In this document: piece by piece, positions 18,222 through 27,138 of the stretch
Layout: every line of letters starts with the position of its first letter
Numbering within the stretch: position 1 is the first letter of the stretch
NCBI GenBank assembly: GCA_035548655.1
Contig: DASZSN010000028.1
Coordinates: 1 to 46,138 of the forward strand
Source of the DNA: Minisyncoccota bacterium
GTDB lineage: Bacteria; Patescibacteriota; Minisyncoccia; Phycocordibacterales; UBA9973
Direction of reading: 5' to 3'
DNA: 46,138 nucleotides
Made by a program: the position numbers and the translations under genes
The notes under the pieces: model-generated
Database searches by the model: none
Told to the model about the DNA's origin: nothing
The model's input: the letters and a program-made list of their open reading frames with translations, nothing else

Positions 18222-18554
18222 AAAAGATTCTAGTTGTAAACGTTTCAAATGATTTCCAGATTTCCTAATAGGAATCGGGCAATTAGTACACCTCGGCTGA
18301 ACGTATTACTACGCGTACACCTGGTGCCTATCAACGTGATCATCTCTCACGACCCTCAACGATACCTTATCTTGAAGCTGGCTTCACGCTTAGATGCTTT
18401 CAGCGTTTATCCATGCCGAACATAGCTACTGGGCGGTCCGTCTGGCGACAGAGCCCATAGACCAGAGGTTCGTTCATTTCGGTCCTCTCGTACTAGAAAC
18501 GAATCTTCTCAAGTATCAACGCCTGCAGTAGATAGGAGACCAACCTGTCTTACG

Positions 18555-19349
18555 CTTCTTTTCACACATTGCTGTATGGAATGGACTATAACTTCACCCT
18601 CACTTCGTTCGGGAGTTATCAAGTTCATCAAGTTTGTAAAGTTACAAAGTAGAAACAAAGTGCCTCGTACTTGATAACCTGATAACTTGAAAACTTTCAA
18701 CTCACGCAAAGCGTGGGGCTCAACAGTTAGTCTCTACGGGTCTAAATTAAACAGCTTTCAATGCATTGTCTACAGATTCTATTTCTTCAGAAGTACCAAA
18801 AGTTTTTAGTTCTTCGTCAGTAATAAGTTCTCTGTTTTCTTTGAATATTTCAAGTTGTTTTCTAAGAGCTAGATCGTTGAAATCAGGCTTGCCAATCTGA
18901 TTGAGCATATCTTTAATTCTTTTAAAGTTTGCTTTCATCTTTTGCAATATTTCCTGTCGTTCATTTTGAACATTTTCACCTTCATGGCTCATAGTAGTTC
19001 CCTCGGAATTAACCCCTAATGCAACAAATATAGCATAGGATTGGTCTCTTCCGATATTAGTTGAGCATGTCATCTGTTGTCACCAACAGCGACCGCCGTA
19101 ATTGGATGGTTCTCTGTACCCGCCTCATCAGCGGATATATCTTTCAATCAAAATGACTTGAAATCATCTTGATTGTCTTCGACGAAAAGACTAAAACAGT
19201 AAACCTGTTTATAATTTTTTATACTCCTTGTTTATCTCTCGGGACTCAGACGGCAAGAAAGTCAAAAGTTATCAAGTTAAAAGTTATCAAGAAAATTGCA
19301 AACGCAACTAACTTTACAAACTTTCAACTTTCAACTTTATAACTAACTT
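18555..19349 (-). mobile_element. Group I intron in 23S rRNA at the position equivalent to E. coli ~2593, carrying an unrecognised ORF
   Basis: In rRNA sense the exon flanks read GCTGGGTTCAGACCGT | CGTAAGACAGGTTGGTC, while E. coli has GGGUUUAGAACGU-CGUGAGACAGUUCGGUC. The 5' exon ends in U and the intron ends in G. A group I R-like element GTAGAGACTAAC (18726-18737) and an S-like element GAAGTTATAGTCC (18583-18595) can form P7. The ORF ends just before R, as it does in the second intron. I could not place a convincing P1/IGS near the 5' end. Confidence 0.75.
18747..19073 (-). CDS. Intron-encoded hypothetical protein, 108 aa as listed or 81 aa from ATG 18992, with no recognisable homing-endonuclease motif
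   Basis: This is a long open frame in an AT-rich, stop-prone insert. A GAGGGA box lies 6 nt upstream of the internal ATG at 18992. The product MSHEGENVQNERQEILQKMKANFKRIKDMLNQIGKPDFNDLALRKQLEIFKENRELITDEELKTFGTSEEIESVDNALKAV is predicted helical and K/E-rich. It has no LAGLIDADG, GIY-YIG, HNH or His-Cys box motif. Confidence 0.5.
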   Translation of the reverse strand: MTCSTNIGRDQSYAIFVALGVNSEGTTMSHEGENVQNERQEILQKMKANFKRIKDMLNQIGKPDFNDLALRKQLEIFKENRELITDEELKTFGTSEEIESVDNALKAV

Positions 19350-19980
19350 ACGGTCTGAACCCAGCTCGCGTACCTTTTTAATTGGCGAACAGCCAAACCC
19401 TTGGGACCTTCTCCAGCCCCGGGATAAGGTGAGCCGACATCGAGGTGCCGAACTCCGCCGTCGCTATGGACGCTTAGGCGGAACTAGCCTGTTATCCCCG
19501 GAGTAGCTTCTATCCGTTAATCTTCGGCCGCATCTAATGCGGACCGTCGGTTCACTATGTTCTGCTTTCGCACCTGCTCGACATGGCCGTCTTACAGTCA
19601 AGCTCTCTTATGCCATTGCACTATCGGCACGGTTTCCATTCGCGCCTAGAGAACCTTTGAACTCCTCCGTTACTCTTTTGGAGGATACCGCCCCAGTAAA
19701 ACTACCCGCCAGGAACTGTCTCGGCGCGTTTTTGCCGCGCCGGTTAGGATATGCCCAAGTACAAAGAGGTATTTCACTGGCGACTCCATGAACCCCAAAA
19801 GGTTCACTTCAAAGTCTCCCTCCTATGCTACGTAGTACACGAACATACCCAATACCAAGCTGTAGTAAAGCTTCCGGGGTCTTTTCGTCTAACTGCAGGT
19901 AACCGGCATCTTCACCGGTATTGTATTTTCACCGAGCAAATCCCCGAGACAGTTTCCCAGTCATTACACCATTCGTGCGC

Positions 19981-20024
<44 letters not shown>

Positions 20025-20839
20025 CATTGCGTGGTAGCTTGTTCAAATGTGTACTGATGTGTGTCAATTATTTACCAAATATGTATTGTGTTAACTCTCT
20101 GTCGCCAGAGAGGTCGGACTATATCTTCACTTCTTCGACAGTCGACGTTCCAATTTCGTCTTGAAGTGTCTTGCGTATAGTCTCTGAGGATTTTTCTACT
20201 TTTTTATGACGTCTTTTAATGAATACTTTCTTTTTCTTCCTTTTCCTTCATTGAGTGTTTCTCGAAGTTTGAGAACTCCTTGTAATCCTGATGGACTAAG
20301 ATGTTCTTTGTTATACATTCGAACAACAATCTGTTTGAAAATTGAAAAATTTTTCTTTTTTCTTGCAGAAATGAAGTGAAATCGTTCGAAAAAAGGAATA
20401 ACTTTTTCATATAATGAAGTACTGTTAGTGACTTCATAATAGACTACTCCATCACTTCTCTCGCGAAGAGTGCCGCATCCAAAGATTTTTTTAATCCATG
20501 AAAGAATCACTCGATCTTTTTGAGAAATATTGAATGAAGCAGTAATTTTCCATTCTTCTTTGTAATCAATTCTTTTTTTGATGGAAAGGTTAAAACTTCC
20601 TTCTCCATCGGTAAAACCAGCAATATAATATCCATCTTTTGGATCTATATTTTTGAGCCAATTTTCCATTTTTTATTTAAGACAGTAGAAATCTTTCCTG
20701 CTGATTGTCTGCGTCTGTATATTGTCACTGCTTCATCGACGTGAAGTGAGTAATACAGAATACTTTTTTTCCACCAGAGGCGGACCAGAGTTTCCAGCAT
20801 ATAGCAAGATTTATTTGCGTAACTACAACGGTCATGTCT
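20025..20839 (-). mobile_element. Group I intron in the helix-69 loop of 23S rRNA (E. coli ~1917) carrying a LAGLIDADG ORF
   Basis: The exon flanks read GGCCGTAACTAT | AACGGTCCTAAGGTAGCG. P1 forms between exon CGTAACTAT (20840-20848) and the intron guide GTAGTTACG (20818-20826), with a U.G pair at the splice site. The R element CAGAGACTATA (20176-20186) and the S element AAGATATAGTCC (20116-20127) are the classical group I core. The terminal base is G at 20025. Confidence 0.88.
20196..20669 (-). CDS. LAGLIDADG homing endonuclease, single-motif (homodimer) type
   Basis: The motif YIAGFTDGEGSF lies near the N-terminus, the size is 157 aa, the tail is basic, and the ORF sits inside a group I intron. 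Confidence 0.92.
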   Translation of the reverse strand: MENWLKNIDPKDGYYIAGFTDGEGSFNLSIKKRIDYKEEWKITASFNISQKDRVILSWIKKIFGCGTLRERSDGVVYYEVTNSTSLYEKVIPFFERFHFISARKKKNFSIFKQIVVRMYNKEHLSPSGLQGVLKLRETLNEGKGRKRKYSLKDVIKK

Positions 20840-21015
20840 ATAGTTACGGCCGACATTCACCAGGGCTTGTAACAGTCAGCAATGCGGATTGCTCCGCATC
20901 ACCGCCGTTAGTTAACCTTCTGGCATCGGTCAGGTGTCACCCCCTATACATCCTCTTACGAGTTCGCAGGGAGCTGTGTTTTTGGTAAACAGTTGCCAGG
21001 AATACTTTCGCTGCG

Positions 21016-21113
21016 CCCCGCCCTCTTTCCCAACAAATACATCAGTTCTACGCGCTTAAGGTCATCAGACGATAAACGTTGTATTGATGTATTTGCGAGG
21101 ATAGAGGGCGGGG
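21016..21113 (-). repeat. Hairpin insertion element, copy A, in 23S domain IV region (partner copy B at 23034-23116)
   Basis: ccccgccctctTtcccaacaaataCa...tatttgcgaggatagagggcgggg has a base stem CCCCGCCCTCT/AGAGGGCGGGG. It replaces a helix that I recall as roughly half this length in E. coli. Confidence 0.7.
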
Positions 21114-21656
21114 AAGCCTTATACCGAGGGTACGGCTGCTTGTTTGCCGAGTTCCTTGGGGATCTCTCACTCGTTCGCCTTGGTCTTCTCGACCTGATCA
21201 CCTGTGTCGGTTTGCGGTACGGGCTCTCTCATACTGGCTTTAGAAGTTTTTCTCGGAAGCGTGCTCACATGACTTCATCGTGGCGTACCACAACTTCGAC
21301 GCGTCACTGACAGTTCACATTAAAGTGAGGAAAACGGATTTACCTGCCTTCCCTGCTCGAGACACGCACCACAATCCAATAAGTGGCTCATGCTACTACA
21401 CTTCGTCGCTCCATCAAATATGAAAGGGGTGATGGAATATTAACCATCTGTCCATCGGTTACGGCGTTTGCCATTACCTTAGGCCCCGACTAACCCTGGG
21501 ATGATTGCCATTGCCCAGGAAACCTTGATCTTTCGGCGGGAGGGAATTGCACCCTCCTTGCGGTTACTTGTGCCAACATTCTTACTTCCACACGCTCCAG
21601 CATGGCTCACGCCTTTGCCTTCACAGCAAGAGTGGAATACTCTCCTACCGCTTGTG

Positions 21657-21806
21657 AATTTCATAAAGGAGAGAAGTTTCCTTCTCAATATATTTGGTAC
21701 CTGCACCTATGCAAGCATGACACATCGTTACTGTTATTTATCCAGTGTCAGCTGCATAGTGCAGGTAAAAGGAACAAGTCTGCTTTATTTTGTTCCTTTA
21801 TGAAAT
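21657..21806 (-). other. ~150-nt insertion in 23S helix 45 (a classical IVS site)
   Basis: The helix-45 stem gcttgtg...ccgcaagc is extended by aatttcataaagga...tcctttatgaaat, which encloses three internal hairpins (gagaag/cttctc, cctgcac.tatgca/tgcatagtgcagg, ggaacaa/ttgttcc). Confidence 0.6.
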
Positions 21807-22427
21807 CCGCAAGCCCTCAGTTTCGGTAATATACTTAGCCCCGATTATCTGCGGCGCGAGATCTCTCGATGAGTGAGCTGTTACGCTTTCTTTAAAAGAT
21901 GGCTGCTTCTAAGCCAACTTCCTCATTGTCGGAGAAATCTCACCTCCTTAAGACGCACTTAGTATATATTTAGGGACCTTAACTTGAGATCTGGGCTGTT
22001 TCCCTTTTGTCTGACGGAGCTTAGCCCCCGTAGACTAACTGCTATGTTATAACGCTTGGTATTCGGAGTTTGATAGGTGTAGCGAGATTGCTCCCTGTCT
22101 AAACCTTCCAGTGCTCTACCCCCAAGAGGATCACATAACGCTAACCCTAAAGCTATTTCGGAGAGAACCAGCTATTACCAGGTTCGATAAGCTTTTCACT
22201 CCAACCCACAAGTCATCCGAATGCGTTGTACGACATACCGGTTCGGGCCTCCAGAGATCTTTCGAACTCCTTCACCCTGCTCATGGGTAGCTCACCTGGC
22301 TTCGGGTCTTATGCATACTACTAAACGCGCTATTCACGCTCGGTTTCCCTACGGCTTTGCGGTTGCCCGCTTTGCCTTGCAGCATACATAAACTCGTTGG
22401 CTCATTCTTCAATAGGCACGCCGTGAC

Positions 22428-22563
22428 GGACATCACGCAATGCGCAATGCCAAGTACCAAGTCAAAAGTCATCGCGTTGAAAGTGAGTCGAAAATAATCG
22501 CACTCTCTATATAACGTGACAACTTGAAAACTTGAGACTTGCATCACACCCTGTGTGATGCCC
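22428..22563 (-). other. ~130-nt insertion in 23S helix 25 (a classical IVS site) containing AAGT/CAAG-unit repeats
   Basis: The flanks GGCACGCCGTGAC...GCTCCGACTCCTTGTAAGC correspond to E. coli GGTACGCAGTCAC...GCTCCCACTGCTTGTACG. The insert carries acaacttgaaaacttgagactt and the hairpin gcatcacaccctgtgtgatgc. Confidence 0.55.
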
Positions 22564-22617
22564 GCTCCGACTCCTTGTAAGCATATGGTTTCAGTTCTAT
22601 TTCACCCTCCTTTCGGA

Positions 22618-22660
<43 letters not shown>

Positions 22661-22870
22661 TTTACCTTGTATGTAGCCTTACCAGTTAGTTCTGGCAGAT
22701 TCCTCCCGGCTATTCGTGTCCGGAAGTACTCAAGAAAAACGACAGAAAAGGAAATTGCATTTCAAGTACGGGATTATCACCCTCTATGATGGTGGTTTCC
22801 AACACCTTCCTCTATACAATTTCTTTGTAACTTTTCTCAATAAATTGACGTCGTCCTCTTACAACCCCCA

Positions 22871-22986
22871 AGCATCACGCAAAGCGTGATAATAACCAAT
22901 CATCAAGCACCACTAACCAAACGAGTCGCGCTCGTTGATTATTGATTATTGAAATTTGATTATTGCATCACGCTCTCTGTGATGCT
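22871..22986 (-). other. ~115-nt insertion in 23S domain I forming a long A-U/G.U helix
   Basis: The terminal hairpins are gcatcacgcaaagcgtgat and gcatcacgctctctgtgatgc. The arms aataaccaatcatcaagcaccactaaccaaacgag and ctcgttgattattgattattgaaatttgattatt pair well only in the rRNA-sense strand, where C/A mismatches on the + strand become G.U pairs. Confidence 0.5.
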
Positions 22987-23033
22987 CAGGTTTGGGCTTC
23001 TCCTCTTTCGCTCGCCGCTACTTAAGGAATGTG

Positions 23034-23116
23034 CCCCGCCCTCTGTCCCAACAAATAAACCATTGAATGTACATAGAAATAGTATCAACGATTTATTTAC
23101 GGAGAGAGAGGGCGGG
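23034..23116 (-). repeat. Hairpin insertion element, copy B, in 23S domain I (partner copy A at 21016-21113)
   Basis: ccccgccctctGtcccaacaaataAa...tttatttacggagagagagggcggg is inserted between CGCCGCTACTTAAGGAAT and TTGTTTTCTTTTCCTCC. The first 26 nt match copy A at 24 of 26 positions, and the closing stem is the same. Confidence 0.7.
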
Positions 23117-23559
23117 ACATTGTTTTCTTTTCCTCCAGGTACTGAGATGTTTCACTTCCCTGGGTTCGCACCACACCCCACTTATGTGGGTGGGTCATCG
23201 AGGTTTGCTCGATGGAGTTTCCTCATTCGGACATCTCCGGATCAAAGGTTGTTAGGCACCTCCCCGAAGCGTATCGCCGCCTCCCGCGTCCTTCATCGCC
23301 ATGTAAAGCCAAGGCATCCGCCATATGCTCTTATTTAAATTTCCTATTAGGAAATCTAGAAATCATTTTCATCCTCTCACTCAGATTTTGAGCGAGAGGG
23401 TAAGCCGCTCATTTATCACCGCTGACAAACGATCGGCTCTTCTCTGCCTCTCCTACCTGCAATCCCACCGGGTGGCGAGATTTCTTGAACGCTGGCGCAT
23501 TCAACAATACGAAGGGCAGCATATAGTTTTCAAAAAACACCTATTGATTGATCTGGACG

Positions 23560-26344: not shown

Positions 26345-26836
26345 TTACGCGCTTTTCTGTTTTGCTATCTCATTCACGGCAATCGCGAGTCGCTGTATCG
26401 GACTCTTGAGGAGATACGCCAATTGTGAGAGCAGTACCTCGCGTGATGGGATGGTTGCGATGGAGAGCATCGCTTCTTTTGTTTTGTATTCTCCTTCAAA
26501 GATTCCGCCGGCGATTGCGAGCATGTCTTTGTTGGTCTTTTGAAATTCGTACACTTCGCGAGCAGGCGCGATTTGATCCGTGCCATACGCGATTGCGATT
26601 TCACCGGAAAGCTCCGGGAGCTCGCCCTTATAGCCACGTTCATTGAGTACGCGGGTGAGAAGTGTTTTCTTCCCTACTTTGTAGCCAACGCCGGCACCGG
26701 TGAGCTTGCGACGAAGCGCGTTTGCCGCTTTGACGGTGAGTCCTTTGAATTGGACGAACACCACGGTTTCAGCGCCTTTGAGAATATCAGAAAAAGAAGC
26801 GACAATCTGTCCTTTTTTCTCTTTTGAAATTGCCAT
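26345..26836 (-). CDS. rplJ: 50S ribosomal protein L10
   Basis: The sequence [45 protein letters not shown]...GKKTL is the L10 signature. The gene lies immediately upstream of rplL. Confidence 0.95.
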
Positions 26837-26944
26837 TATAGTTAGTTATCAAGTTTATAAAGTTTATACAGTTTATAAAGTAAAAGTCACCAATACTACG
26901 TGTGTTAGCTTGATAACTTGATGAACTTTACAAACTTTCAACTT
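26837..26944 (-). repeat. AAGTT-unit repeat module occupying the last 108 nt of the rplJ 5' leader
   Basis: Tandem 9-mers are aagtttata (26851-26859), aagtttata (26860-26868), cagtttata (26869-26877) and aagtaaaag (26878-26886). The inverted repeat agttatcaag (26842-26851) pairs with cttgataact (26909-26918). The 21-mer aactttacaaactttcaactt (26924-26944) is identical to 19310-19330 inside the 23S intron. Confidence 0.7.
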
Positions 26945-27050
26945 GTCGCCCTTTGCGACTGTGTAGAGAGTTTCGACCTCGGCAGGTTCTCTTTATGCGC
27001 CCCTCGCTTGCGCTCGGGGTCTGCGACCCGCTGTCTTTGATCTACACAAG
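26945..27050 (-). promoter_or_regulatory. Structured GC-rich leader, possibly an L10-leader-like autoregulatory element
   Basis: The closing helix TGTGTAGA/TCTACACA (27041-27048 with 26960-26967) encloses GC-rich hairpins with internal loops (CCCCGAGCGCAAGCGAGGGG). A small hairpin GTCGC-AAAGG-GCGAC follows. The position directly between the promoter and rplJ is as expected for the L10 leader, but the identity is not verified. Confidence 0.35.
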
Positions 27051-27054
27051 CATC

Positions 27055-27082
27055 ATCTTAGCAGAGGATTTTATTTCGTCAA
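27055..27082 (-). promoter_or_regulatory. Candidate rplJL promoter TTGACG-16-TAAGAT
   Basis: The minus strand reads gtaTTGACGaaataaaatcctctgcTAAGATgatg, immediately after the upstream terminator. Confidence 0.45.
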
Positions 27083-27085
27083 TAC

Positions 27086-27113
27086 AAATCCGCCACTATC
27101 ATGTGGCGGATTT
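27086..27113 (-). terminator. Terminator of gene 27139..27639
   Basis: aaatccgcc - 10-nt loop - ggcggattt. The stem sequence is the same as in the rRNA terminator at 18064-18087. Confidence 0.5.
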
Positions 27114-27138
27114 GCGGAAACAATCGATACAACGAGAA

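Follow-up and report, generated by a model that had tools for sequence, protein, structure and literature searches.

Why do the leader of a ribosomal protein gene and an intron of a 23S rRNA gene share an exact 21-nt sequence? In the stretch of DNA analysed here, 46,138 nt long and referred to below as the window, the 21-mer AACTTTACAAACTTTCAACTT occurs identically at 26924-26944, in the 108-nt segment that precedes rplJ, and at 19310-19330, in a group I intron of the 23S rRNA gene. The original prediction, which drew attention to this match, held that it could not be chance and offered three readings: a small mobile structured-RNA module (MITE-like), a binding array for the product of the intron open reading frame (ORF), and a translational regulator. 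The match itself is exact. We conclude, with a probability of roughly 0.6, that the 108-nt segment is a copy of a dispersed, AU-rich, self-complementary hairpin element that resembles the intervening sequences of rRNA and is tolerated because it folds on itself.

The rplJ locus and its 108-nt segment

The minus strand of the window carries the 23S rRNA, 5S rRNA, rplJ and rplL genes, rplJ and rplL being located 3.5 kb upstream of the 23S gene. Over 20.5 kb the window is identical to contig CAZMBW010000010.1 of the metagenome-assembled genome GCA_964564945.1, and the source labels on homologues of its L10 protein, where named, are Minisyncoccia, Paceibacterota or Patescibacteria group, which places the organism among the ultra-small CPR bacteria. 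Our survey of the source genome covers about 52 kb, composed of the 46-kb window and 5.9 kb further along the same contig. The features needed here are the following.

18240-23344, minus strand: 23S rRNA gene, about 5.1 kb
26345-26836, minus strand: rplJ, ribosomal protein L10, 163 aa (Pfam Ribosomal_L10 and homologues)
26837-26944, minus strand: element D, AAGUU/AACUU-unit hairpin from the L10 leader to the rplJ start (sequence, fold, Tandem Repeats Finder and the covariance model R1 described below)
26945-26960, minus strand: small GC hairpin GUCGC-AAAGG-GCGAC between leader core and element D (sequence, fold)
26961-27047, minus strand: L10 (rplJ) leader core, GUGUAGAUCAAAGACAG...CUGCCGAGGUCGAAACUCUCUACAC (conserved in the relatives L006, L007, L008, L181, L182 and L184)
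27055-27082, minus strand: promoter-like TTGACG-16-TAAGAT, upstream of the leader (promoter prediction, sequence)
27087-27116: hairpin terminator of the gene upstream of rplJ (sequence and terminator prediction)

Read from 5′ to 3′, rplJ is preceded by the terminator of the preceding gene, the promoter, the leader core, the GC hairpin and the 108-nt element D. A check of upstream sequences found no Shine-Dalgarno sequence before rplJ or before 15 of the 16 genes around it. A small hairpin analogous to GUCGC-AAAGG-GCGAC is present at the corresponding place in L006.

Element D is built of AAGTT-type units, as originally described: Tandem Repeats Finder reports a period of 9 with 4.0 copies at 26846-26881 and a period of 8 at 26909-26928. 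In RNA sense, the predicted hairpin has a 5′ arm at about 26943-26905, a loop at about 26904-26883 and a 3′ arm at about 26882-26844, with a folding energy of -25.4 kcal/mol (z -2.5); the sense strand folds more stably than the antisense strand by 5 kcal/mol. The AUG (26836-26834) and the 7 nt before it (26843-26837) are unpaired in the predicted minimum-energy fold, which places the base of the hairpin 7 nt from the start codon rather than the 5 nt first proposed for the 3′ arm.

Comparison of the leader among relatives, a check suggested by the original prediction, finds no element D in L006, L007, L008 or L181, the L10 proteins of which are 73-81% identical to that of the window. These four keep the leader core, followed by an AT-rich spacer of 21-44 nt before the rplJ ATG. 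In L004 and L005, an unrelated hairpin takes the place of element D, and L002 and L003, which are other assemblies of the window organism, are identical to the window over the leader. Thus, relatives conserve 26961-27047 and not 26837-26944, and element D is not part of the conserved L10 leader. The Rfam L10_leader model (RF00557) gives a weak match at 26871-27058, with 26.5 bits against a gathering score of 44; assignment of element D to the leader was rejected because this match is sub-threshold and relatives keep the leader without the element.

Three other identities of element D were considered and rejected. As an intrinsic terminator, it has no U-run and no terminator-prediction match; as an internal promoter, it has no minus-strand promoter match; and against a role as a Shine-Dalgarno substitute, arrays of the family occur in both orientations.

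Four hairpins of one type in the window

The pattern AAGTT-N2-4-AAGTT-N2-4-AAGTT has 6 matches in the window and none in 100 shuffles, so that the original statement that the sharing cannot be chance stands against random sequence; as proof of direct copying between intron and leader it does not stand, as set out below. Strict and relaxed window scans both place clusters of AAGTT/AACTT solely at 18600-18700 (element A), 19259-19349 (element B), 22459-22540 (element C) and 26840-26944 (element D). All four are predicted hairpins in which the 5′ arm carries AAGUU units and the 3′ arm AACUU units (z -2.5 to -7.7), and Tandem Repeats Finder detects a period of 7-9 in the two arms of each of A, B and D and in a single arm of C. 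Each of the four folds better in the transcribed sense, whereas the copies in the untranslated regions (UTRs) of L199, L207 and L204, described below, fold no better in sense than in antisense. Similarity among the window copies is modest and their loops differ. A pair of window copies has 8-17 9-mers in common (0-5 where element C is involved), which is no more than they share with the copies of L199 and L207.

The same four sites are recovered by an independent model. The covariance model R1 was built from 14 hairpins of other CPR genomes and contains no window sequence. In the 46-kb window it scores element D at 52.5 bits (E 1e-5), element B at 40.7 bits, element A at 32.0 bits and element C at a marginal 17.2 bits (E about 2); nothing besides A-D appears at E <= 10 in the 46 kb, and nothing in the 5.9 kb more of the contig. 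Because its R1 score is marginal, element C is counted as a member on a separate three-part alignment. The unit registers are ambiguous, RNAalifold on the central hairpins therefore gave 6 pairs only, and R1 is thus mostly a sequence model.

Elements A, B and C in the intron and the 23S rRNA

18555-19349, minus strand: group I intron at E. coli 23S position 2592/2593, called the 2593 intron (Rfam, mapping to E. coli 23S)
18747-19073: orphan 108-aa ORF within the 2593 intron
19256-19349, minus strand: element B, AAGUU/AACUU hairpin in the P1 loop (L1) of the 2593 intron (fold, R1)
18598-18712, minus strand: element A, P8 extension of the 2593 intron (Rfam group I alignment, fold, R1)
22428-22563, minus strand: element C, three-part insertion in place of the 23S helix 25 loop (mapping to E. 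coli 540-553)
22868-22990, minus strand: sister insertion at E. coli 23S 278-442 (fold -54.4 kcal/mol, z -7.7)

Mapping to E. coli bears out the intron boundaries (18555-19349, at 2592/2593) and the helix 25 location (540-553) given in the original prediction. The complementary arms that it placed in intron helices are also seen, elements A and B folding as hairpins (z -3.0 and -7.7, respectively). Two of its details change: the match at 18669-18687, reported as 16 of 18 positions, comes to 14 of 19 in that register and 16 of 19 in a shifted one, and the recurrent 13-mer is present but starts at 18684, not 18683.

Element B (-36.3 kcal/mol) starts with the intron itself, at its first nucleotide, and is followed by the internal guide sequence GCCGUCUG at about 19248-19255. 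As GCCGUCUG can pair with the exon end CAGACCGU, element B would fill the P1 loop. Element A lies between the conserved R and S elements of the Rfam group I alignment, that is, in P8. It consists of a mini-hairpin, CACGCUUUGCGUG, followed by a long AAGUU/AACUU hairpin, and is closed by CCCCAC/GUGAGGG. The L007 homologue of this intron, inserted at the same 23S position, is 411 nt long and has no ORF; it carries a 36-nt L1 hairpin at the site of element B and a 16-nt P8 hairpin, GUGCUCGCAAGAGUAC, at the site of element A. The 108-aa ORF of the window intron matches no Pfam family above threshold, and a search of 5.8 billion proteins gave no homologue. A LAGLIDADG gene is present in the other 23S group I intron, at E. 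coli position 1917, and the AAGTT element is absent from that intron.

Mapped onto E. coli, the helix-tip insertions of the window 23S rRNA lie at about position 230, at 278-442, in helix 25, in the helix-45 region and in helix 63. At helix 25, the empty site of L007, L008 and L181 reads GGAGCGGG-TATTTATA-TCCGTCACGG. In the window these flanks are 122 nt apart, element C taking the place of TATTTATA between the conserved GGAGCGGG and TCCGTCACGG. Its three parts are a mini-hairpin (GCAUCACACAGGGUGUGAUGC), a long AAGU/ACUU hairpin (22455-22541) and a second mini-hairpin (GCAUUGCGCAUUGCGUGAUG). Homologous helix 25 insertions are present in L207, L208 and L199, and L202 and L212 have other insertions at this site. 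The sister insertion at 22868-22990 has flanking mini-hairpins of the element C type, but its arms are made of AAUAAUCA/UGAUUAUU units. The mini-hairpin CACGCUUUGCGUG (CACGCTTTGCGTG) of element A is also found in this 23S insertion, at 22872-22890.

When filled and empty sites are compared, no duplicated flank is seen at helix 25, L1 or P8; the loop is replaced. Elements A-D are all gains with respect to the closest relatives.

The hairpin family in other CPR genomes

We gathered 61 CPR rplJ loci (442 kb) by L10 homology alone. The commonest periodic 5-mer array in this set is AAAGT/ACTTT, which is confined to six loci. In L199, the L10 of which is 46% identical to that of the window, AAGTT/AACTT hairpins precede the rplJ ATG, downstream of the leader, and are also found in the rplJ-rplL spacer and, within the 23S rRNA, in helices 25, 45 and about 63. 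L207 and L208 (L10 42% identical to the window) have one copy in the rplJ-rplL spacer and three in the 23S rRNA, including helix 25. L204 has one hairpin of the family in the leader and one in the rplJ-rplL spacer. In L189 a family copy lies downstream, and the hairpin in the leader is built of a different unit, AGCTGAT. The carriers belong to three L10 clades, and presence is patchy inside each. At least three CPR clades thus contain the family.

The rRNA copies are alike in plan, with a long AAGU/ACUU hairpin between two mini-hairpins, the first of which is GCAUCACA...UGUGAUGC. When eight rRNA copies from three lineages are aligned, 10 of the 32 predicted pairs show compensatory double-sided changes. 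Copies at different kinds of site can be closely alike within one genome. The leader copy and the helix-45 copy of L199 have 27 9-mers in common, including the non-periodic loop GAATGCAAATGCAT, which shows that copies move between mRNA and rRNA sites. The L207 copies are likewise more alike than the window copies, with up to 73 shared 9-mers and flanking mini-hairpins in common.

No Rfam family matches these elements, and we found no description of the family in the literature, in searches that included the unit strings.

What the 21-nt identity means

A scan for AAGTT-N2-4-AAGTTTGTAAAGTT in one genome per species returned at least 120 loci. The matches listed are nearly all from Bacteroidota, Ignavibacteria or CPR and are spacer arrays of (N2-4)AAGTT, direct or in hairpin form. 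The exact window 21-mer is found in about 13 of the 120 listed loci of unrelated genomes, and in two viral contigs. As the 21-mer recurs in unrelated genomes, and as the window copies are no closer to one another than to those of L199 and L207, the identity is not evidence of recent exchange between intron and leader. It amounts to three units of a shared vocabulary and is not proof of recent copying.

Across the CPR and Bacteroidota/Ignavibacteria genomes, the arrays are to a large extent what the original prediction had set against its own claim, common spacer arrays with no positional preference. In Bacteroidota and Ignavibacteria the family grades into plain direct arrays of AAGTT, and such arrays could be ordinary simple-sequence repeats. 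Of 197 arrays, 177 lie outside long ORFs. Their orientation relative to neighbouring genes is 37 versus 61 on the 5′ side and 59 versus 43 on the 3′ side, with no clear bias, which speaks against the class in general acting as a sense-specific RNA. The genes that flank CPR copies are diverse (rpsM/infA, rplO/secY, rpmF, gatCA, parAB, ksgA, uvrD, greA, pheS, murB and others). Among viral contigs, the real pattern gives 25 and a reversed control 26, so no claim of phage enrichment is made; several of the real matches are non-coding AAGTT arrays, whereas the control matches are mostly coding. Enrichment in rRNA and rplJL loci was also considered and is not significant: the loci had been selected for rplJ, and most of their non-coding DNA is rRNA.

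Origin and role of the element

In the reading that we favour, a dispersed hairpin element tolerated because it folds on itself, each arm is an array of units 7-9 nt long, of AAGUU type in the 5′ arm and of AACUU type in the 3′ arm. Each window copy sits where the RNA accepts a stem-loop without losing its own fold, namely the leader spacer, P1, P8 and helix 25, and would be tolerated there because it closes on itself and so reunites its flanks. By analogy, the 23S copies may correspond, in CPR, to classical intervening sequences, whether RNase III excises them or they persist as an expansion. After insertion, the arms would turn over by slippage within the shared unit vocabulary, and for this reason, too, identity of the 21-mer is not evidence of recent copying. 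Transfer between sites within the window genome is suggested by analogy with L199. From the filled and empty sites, the copying is not of the classical cut-and-paste kind with target duplication.

The mobile structured-RNA module of the original prediction survives in part in this reading: the family is dispersed and self-folding, its sites are empty in close relatives, and the L199 copies share a loop. Its MITE-like character is not borne out, as there is no target-site duplication, the termini are not defined and the window copies are not near-identical. Within the rplJ mRNA, element D is most likely a near-neutral passenger, given the diversity of flanking genes, the lack of orientation bias, the unpaired AUG and 7 nt before it, and the lack of Shine-Dalgarno use.

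The first alternative is in-situ expansion of simple sequence, in which slipped-strand duplication of AAGTT-like seeds, with compensatory slippage on the opposite arm, would lead to convergence on a favoured unit without any transfer. Much is compatible with it: both arms of every copy listed are tandem arrays of period 7-9 (for element C, one arm by Tandem Repeats Finder), and unit order and number vary between copies. L007 has a short L1 hairpin, CGAGTAATTATAAGAT..., similar to the base of element B, AAGTTAGTTATAAAGTT. Other units occupy equivalent positions (AATAATCA in the window 23S rRNA and AGCTGAT in the L189 leader), the long direct AAGTT arrays of Bacteroidota and Ignavibacteria often lie beside arrays of other 7-9-nt units, and the 21-mer recurs in unrelated genomes. 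Against it, the leader and rRNA copies of L199 share a non-periodic loop, those of L207 share flanking mini-hairpins, and the mini-hairpin CACGCTTTGCGTG is common to element A and the 23S insertion at 22872-22890. The three-part plan at helix 25 is kept between clades with L10 proteins 42-46% identical and is absent from closer relatives. We regard expansion in place as unlikely, albeit deserving of weight.

A wider reading would give the hairpin itself a role or a means of spread. It might be a conserved CPR-wide module, common to the 23S precursor (helices 25, 45 and 63), group I intron loops and the UTRs of the rplJ-rplL operon, that serves as a shared recognition element, for example for RNase III or a double-stranded-RNA-binding factor, and couples processing or translation of the L10/L12 mRNA to rRNA maturation; or it might be a new kind of mobile RNA-hairpin element that colonises rRNA, introns and mRNAs without target duplication. 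We consider this quite unlikely.

At the rplJ locus, the copy could be a functional cis-regulatory hairpin, acting as a site for RNase III or a double-stranded-RNA-binding protein or modulating access of the 30S subunit, and it might couple L10/L12 synthesis to rRNA maturation. L199 and L204 do have family hairpins that separate the leader from the AUG, a hairpin of another unit stands there in L189, and the rplJ-rplL spacers of L199, L204 and L207/L208 hold further family hairpins; the greater stability of the window copy in sense, by 5 kcal/mol, and its base 7 nt from the AUG would also suit such a role. Nevertheless, none of the four closest relatives with this leader has the element, the UTR copies of L199, L207 and L204 gain no stability in sense over antisense, and the family lies without orientation bias beside genes as unrelated as parAB, ksgA, uvrD, gatCA, murB and pheS. 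The concentration in rRNA and rplJL is not significant given the share of rRNA in the non-coding DNA sampled. Regulation by element D is thus improbable, and the rplJ-specific translational regulator of the original prediction is not upheld.

That prediction's other proposal, a binding array for an intron-encoded homing endonuclease or maturase shared between the intron and its surroundings, has in its favour the two copies within an ORF-bearing intron and is hardly credible: the 108-aa ORF has no homologue or Pfam family above threshold, family members occur in genomes and at loci without intron or ORF, and the real LAGLIDADG gene lies in the 1917 intron, from which the AAGTT element is missing. 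Chance low-complexity sequence without shared origin or meaning, which the AT-rich composition, the short repeated units and the viral control (26 contigs with the reversed pattern against 25) might suggest, can be dismissed almost entirely in view of the 6 matches against 0 in 100 shuffles, the recovery of exactly four sites by an independent model, the same arrangement in other clades and the mostly coding, non-array nature of the viral control matches.

Returning to the dispersed hairpin element, its significance would lie first in rRNA: CPR rRNA genes are heavily interrupted, and at least some of their short non-intron insertions belong to one recognisable hairpin family. The same family is seen in intron loops and mRNA UTRs, and at the same sites in clades with L10 proteins about 45% identical. 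It links rRNA intervening sequences to dispersed intergenic hairpin repeats and provides a concrete sequence model for a census of both. It also raises the questions of how a hairpin spreads without target duplication and whether RNase III acts on rRNA and ribosomal protein mRNA through a shared element. Finally, it advises caution, as exact 20-nt matches between unit-built repeats are not a sign of recent copying.

Comparison with known systems

Intervening sequences (IVSs) of 23S rRNA are located in helices 25 and 45 in Salmonella, Campylobacter, Leptospira and Coxiella; RNase III excises them from the precursor and the ends are not re-ligated, so that the 23S rRNA is fragmented. The hairpins described here resemble them in position, element C replacing the terminal loop of helix 25 and L199 having copies in helices 25 and 45; in form, being extended AU-rich stem-loops of about 90-140 nt with several similar copies in one 23S gene; and in sporadic presence among relatives, the window, L199 and L207/L208 having them and L007, L008 and L181 lacking them. 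They differ from IVSs in that the family also occupies mRNA UTRs (element D) and group I intron loops (elements A and B), in that the arms are periodic arrays of 7-9-nt units, and in being known here from sequence and predicted fold. Short non-intron insertions at the classical IVS sites of CPR 23S genes have been noted as uncharacterised, probable IVSs and presumed RNase III substrates (PMC11270868); IVSs of bacterial 23S rRNA are also covered in PMC2801512 and PMC4990558.

The family can also be set beside dispersed palindromic repeats, with which it has in common that it is short, self-complementary, scattered in non-coding DNA, present or absent between relatives and able to sit inside structured RNA genes and introns. 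Such repeats include REP/BIME, Correia elements, RUP and the Rickettsia palindromic elements, and the palindromes of green-algal and yeast organelles invade spacers, introns and rRNA genes. The family described here, however, has no terminal inverted repeats distinct from its body and no target-site duplication, and its copies are heterogeneous in length and unit order. Compared with a MITE, it lacks target-site duplication at helix 25, L1 and P8 and is an imperfect palindrome with variable ends. Its extragenic hairpin form and lack of target duplication would fit a palindrome of REP/RAYT or IS200/IS605 type, which is typically present in many copies.

Eukaryotic rRNA expansion segments were reportedly described by Hancock and Dover as cryptically simple and as evolving by 'compensatory slippage'. 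The likeness is that helix-tip insertions share short motifs and that the arms stay complementary as their units turn over. The present family differs in being bacterial, in the occurrence of the motif in mRNA leaders and intron loops, and in the conservation of non-periodic loops and mini-hairpins between clades.

Arrays of the TAACTGA heptamer are intergenic short direct repeats of Beggiatoaceae, Cyanobacteria and Bacteroidetes (PMC4679880), and long simple-sequence repeats are treated in Mrazek 2007, as cited in PMC4679880. Repeats of the TAACTGA type resemble the present ones as arrays of 7-9-nt units in spacers, often just upstream of start codons, and in their patchy phylogeny. The unit is another one, however, and the CPR copies are mostly pairs of inverted arrays that give hairpins and lie inside rRNA and introns as well.

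Finally, the L10 leader (RF00557), the autoregulatory 5′ UTR of rplJ, shares its UTR with element D, which lies directly 3′ of the leader core and is not a part of it. What sets the present case apart is one hairpin family, with arms of periodic units, across rRNA helix tips, intron loops and mRNA UTRs.

[quoted passage not shown]

22868-22990, insertion in the E. coli 278-442 region, with arms of AAUAAUCA/UGAUUAUU units
21650-21814, helix-45 insertion of ~145 nt, closed by a 21-nt inverted repeat
L212 14929-15003, tRNA-Lys(CUU) gene on a related CPR contig, within the helix-45 insertion of its 23S rRNA gene
21016-21113, GC-ended hairpin inserted in helix 63 (E. coli 1704-1770)
23032-23119, GC-ended hairpin inserted at E. 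coli 227-233

The first of these insertions is predicted to fold into a single long helix (-54.4 kcal/mol, z -7.7). It is flanked by the same mini-hairpins as the insertion in helix 25, whereas the arm units of the two differ, which suggests that arm units are replaceable within a retained frame.

The helix-45 insertion is closed by the 21-nt inverted repeat GCUUGCGGAUUUCAUAAAGGA/UCCUUUAUGAAAUUCACAAGC. This closing stem is conserved in two close relatives (L007 and L008) and in two further CPR loci (L187 and L212); the interior is different in each. In L212, the interior holds the tRNA-Lys(CUU) gene, implying that either the tRNA splits the 23S gene or the rRNA precursor releases the tRNA.

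The GC-ended hairpins at helix 63 and at E. coli 227-233 constitute a second hairpin family within the 23S gene, unrelated to the AAGTT-unit family. They have the form CCCCGCCCTCT...AGAGGGCGGGG, are ~90-100 nt in length and are 81-88% alike over aligned arm segments of 27-33 nt. Matches of these hairpins to plant MITE-derived miRNA families in Rfam were below threshold and spurious, and there was no other Rfam match.

The intron ORF

The intron at 23S position 2593 contains one further feature:

18747-19073, minus strand, ORF of 108 amino acids

A search of 5.8 billion proteins gave no homologue of its product, nor did any Pfam family score above threshold. The homologous intron of L007 lacks the ORF, which may not be a real gene.

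AAGTT-unit arrays in other genomes and phages

Among the listed matches to the AAGTT-unit pattern (L034-L153), (N2-4)AAGTT units form long direct arrays in spacers of Bacteroidota and Ignavibacteria (for example, L053, L056, L084 and L120). In this set the arrays run to as many as 20 units or more, are frequently located at contig ends and often neighbour arrays of other 7-9-nt units (CCAGCAT, AGAAGTT, AATACTC and GAATGCT). The class appears to be widespread; we found no published description of it in the literature.

In four phage contigs (L021, L027, L028 and L032), an AAGTT-unit array occupies the spacer immediately 5' of a start codon. In L027 the array separates a probable tail tube gene (unannotated, and assigned by gene order only) from the next gene, and L021 contains the exact 21-mer shared by the rplJ leader and the intron. 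Across viral contigs as a whole, the pattern is counted no more often than its reversed control.

Translation starts and the rplJ leader

Around rplJ (window 16345-36836), 15 of 16 genes have no upstream Shine-Dalgarno sequence, and the organism therefore seems to initiate translation without one. Positions in the matching database record run 16401 ahead of those in the window, which would place the window's end at 62539, past the contig's stated length of 60170; the window may derive from a longer version of that contig. In the window's clade, the L10 leader is not followed by a GC hairpin and U-run. Many more distant CPR relatives (L186, L191, L193, L195 and L197) have, upstream of rplJ, an L10 leader and then a GC hairpin with a U-run, an arrangement that looks like an attenuator terminator.
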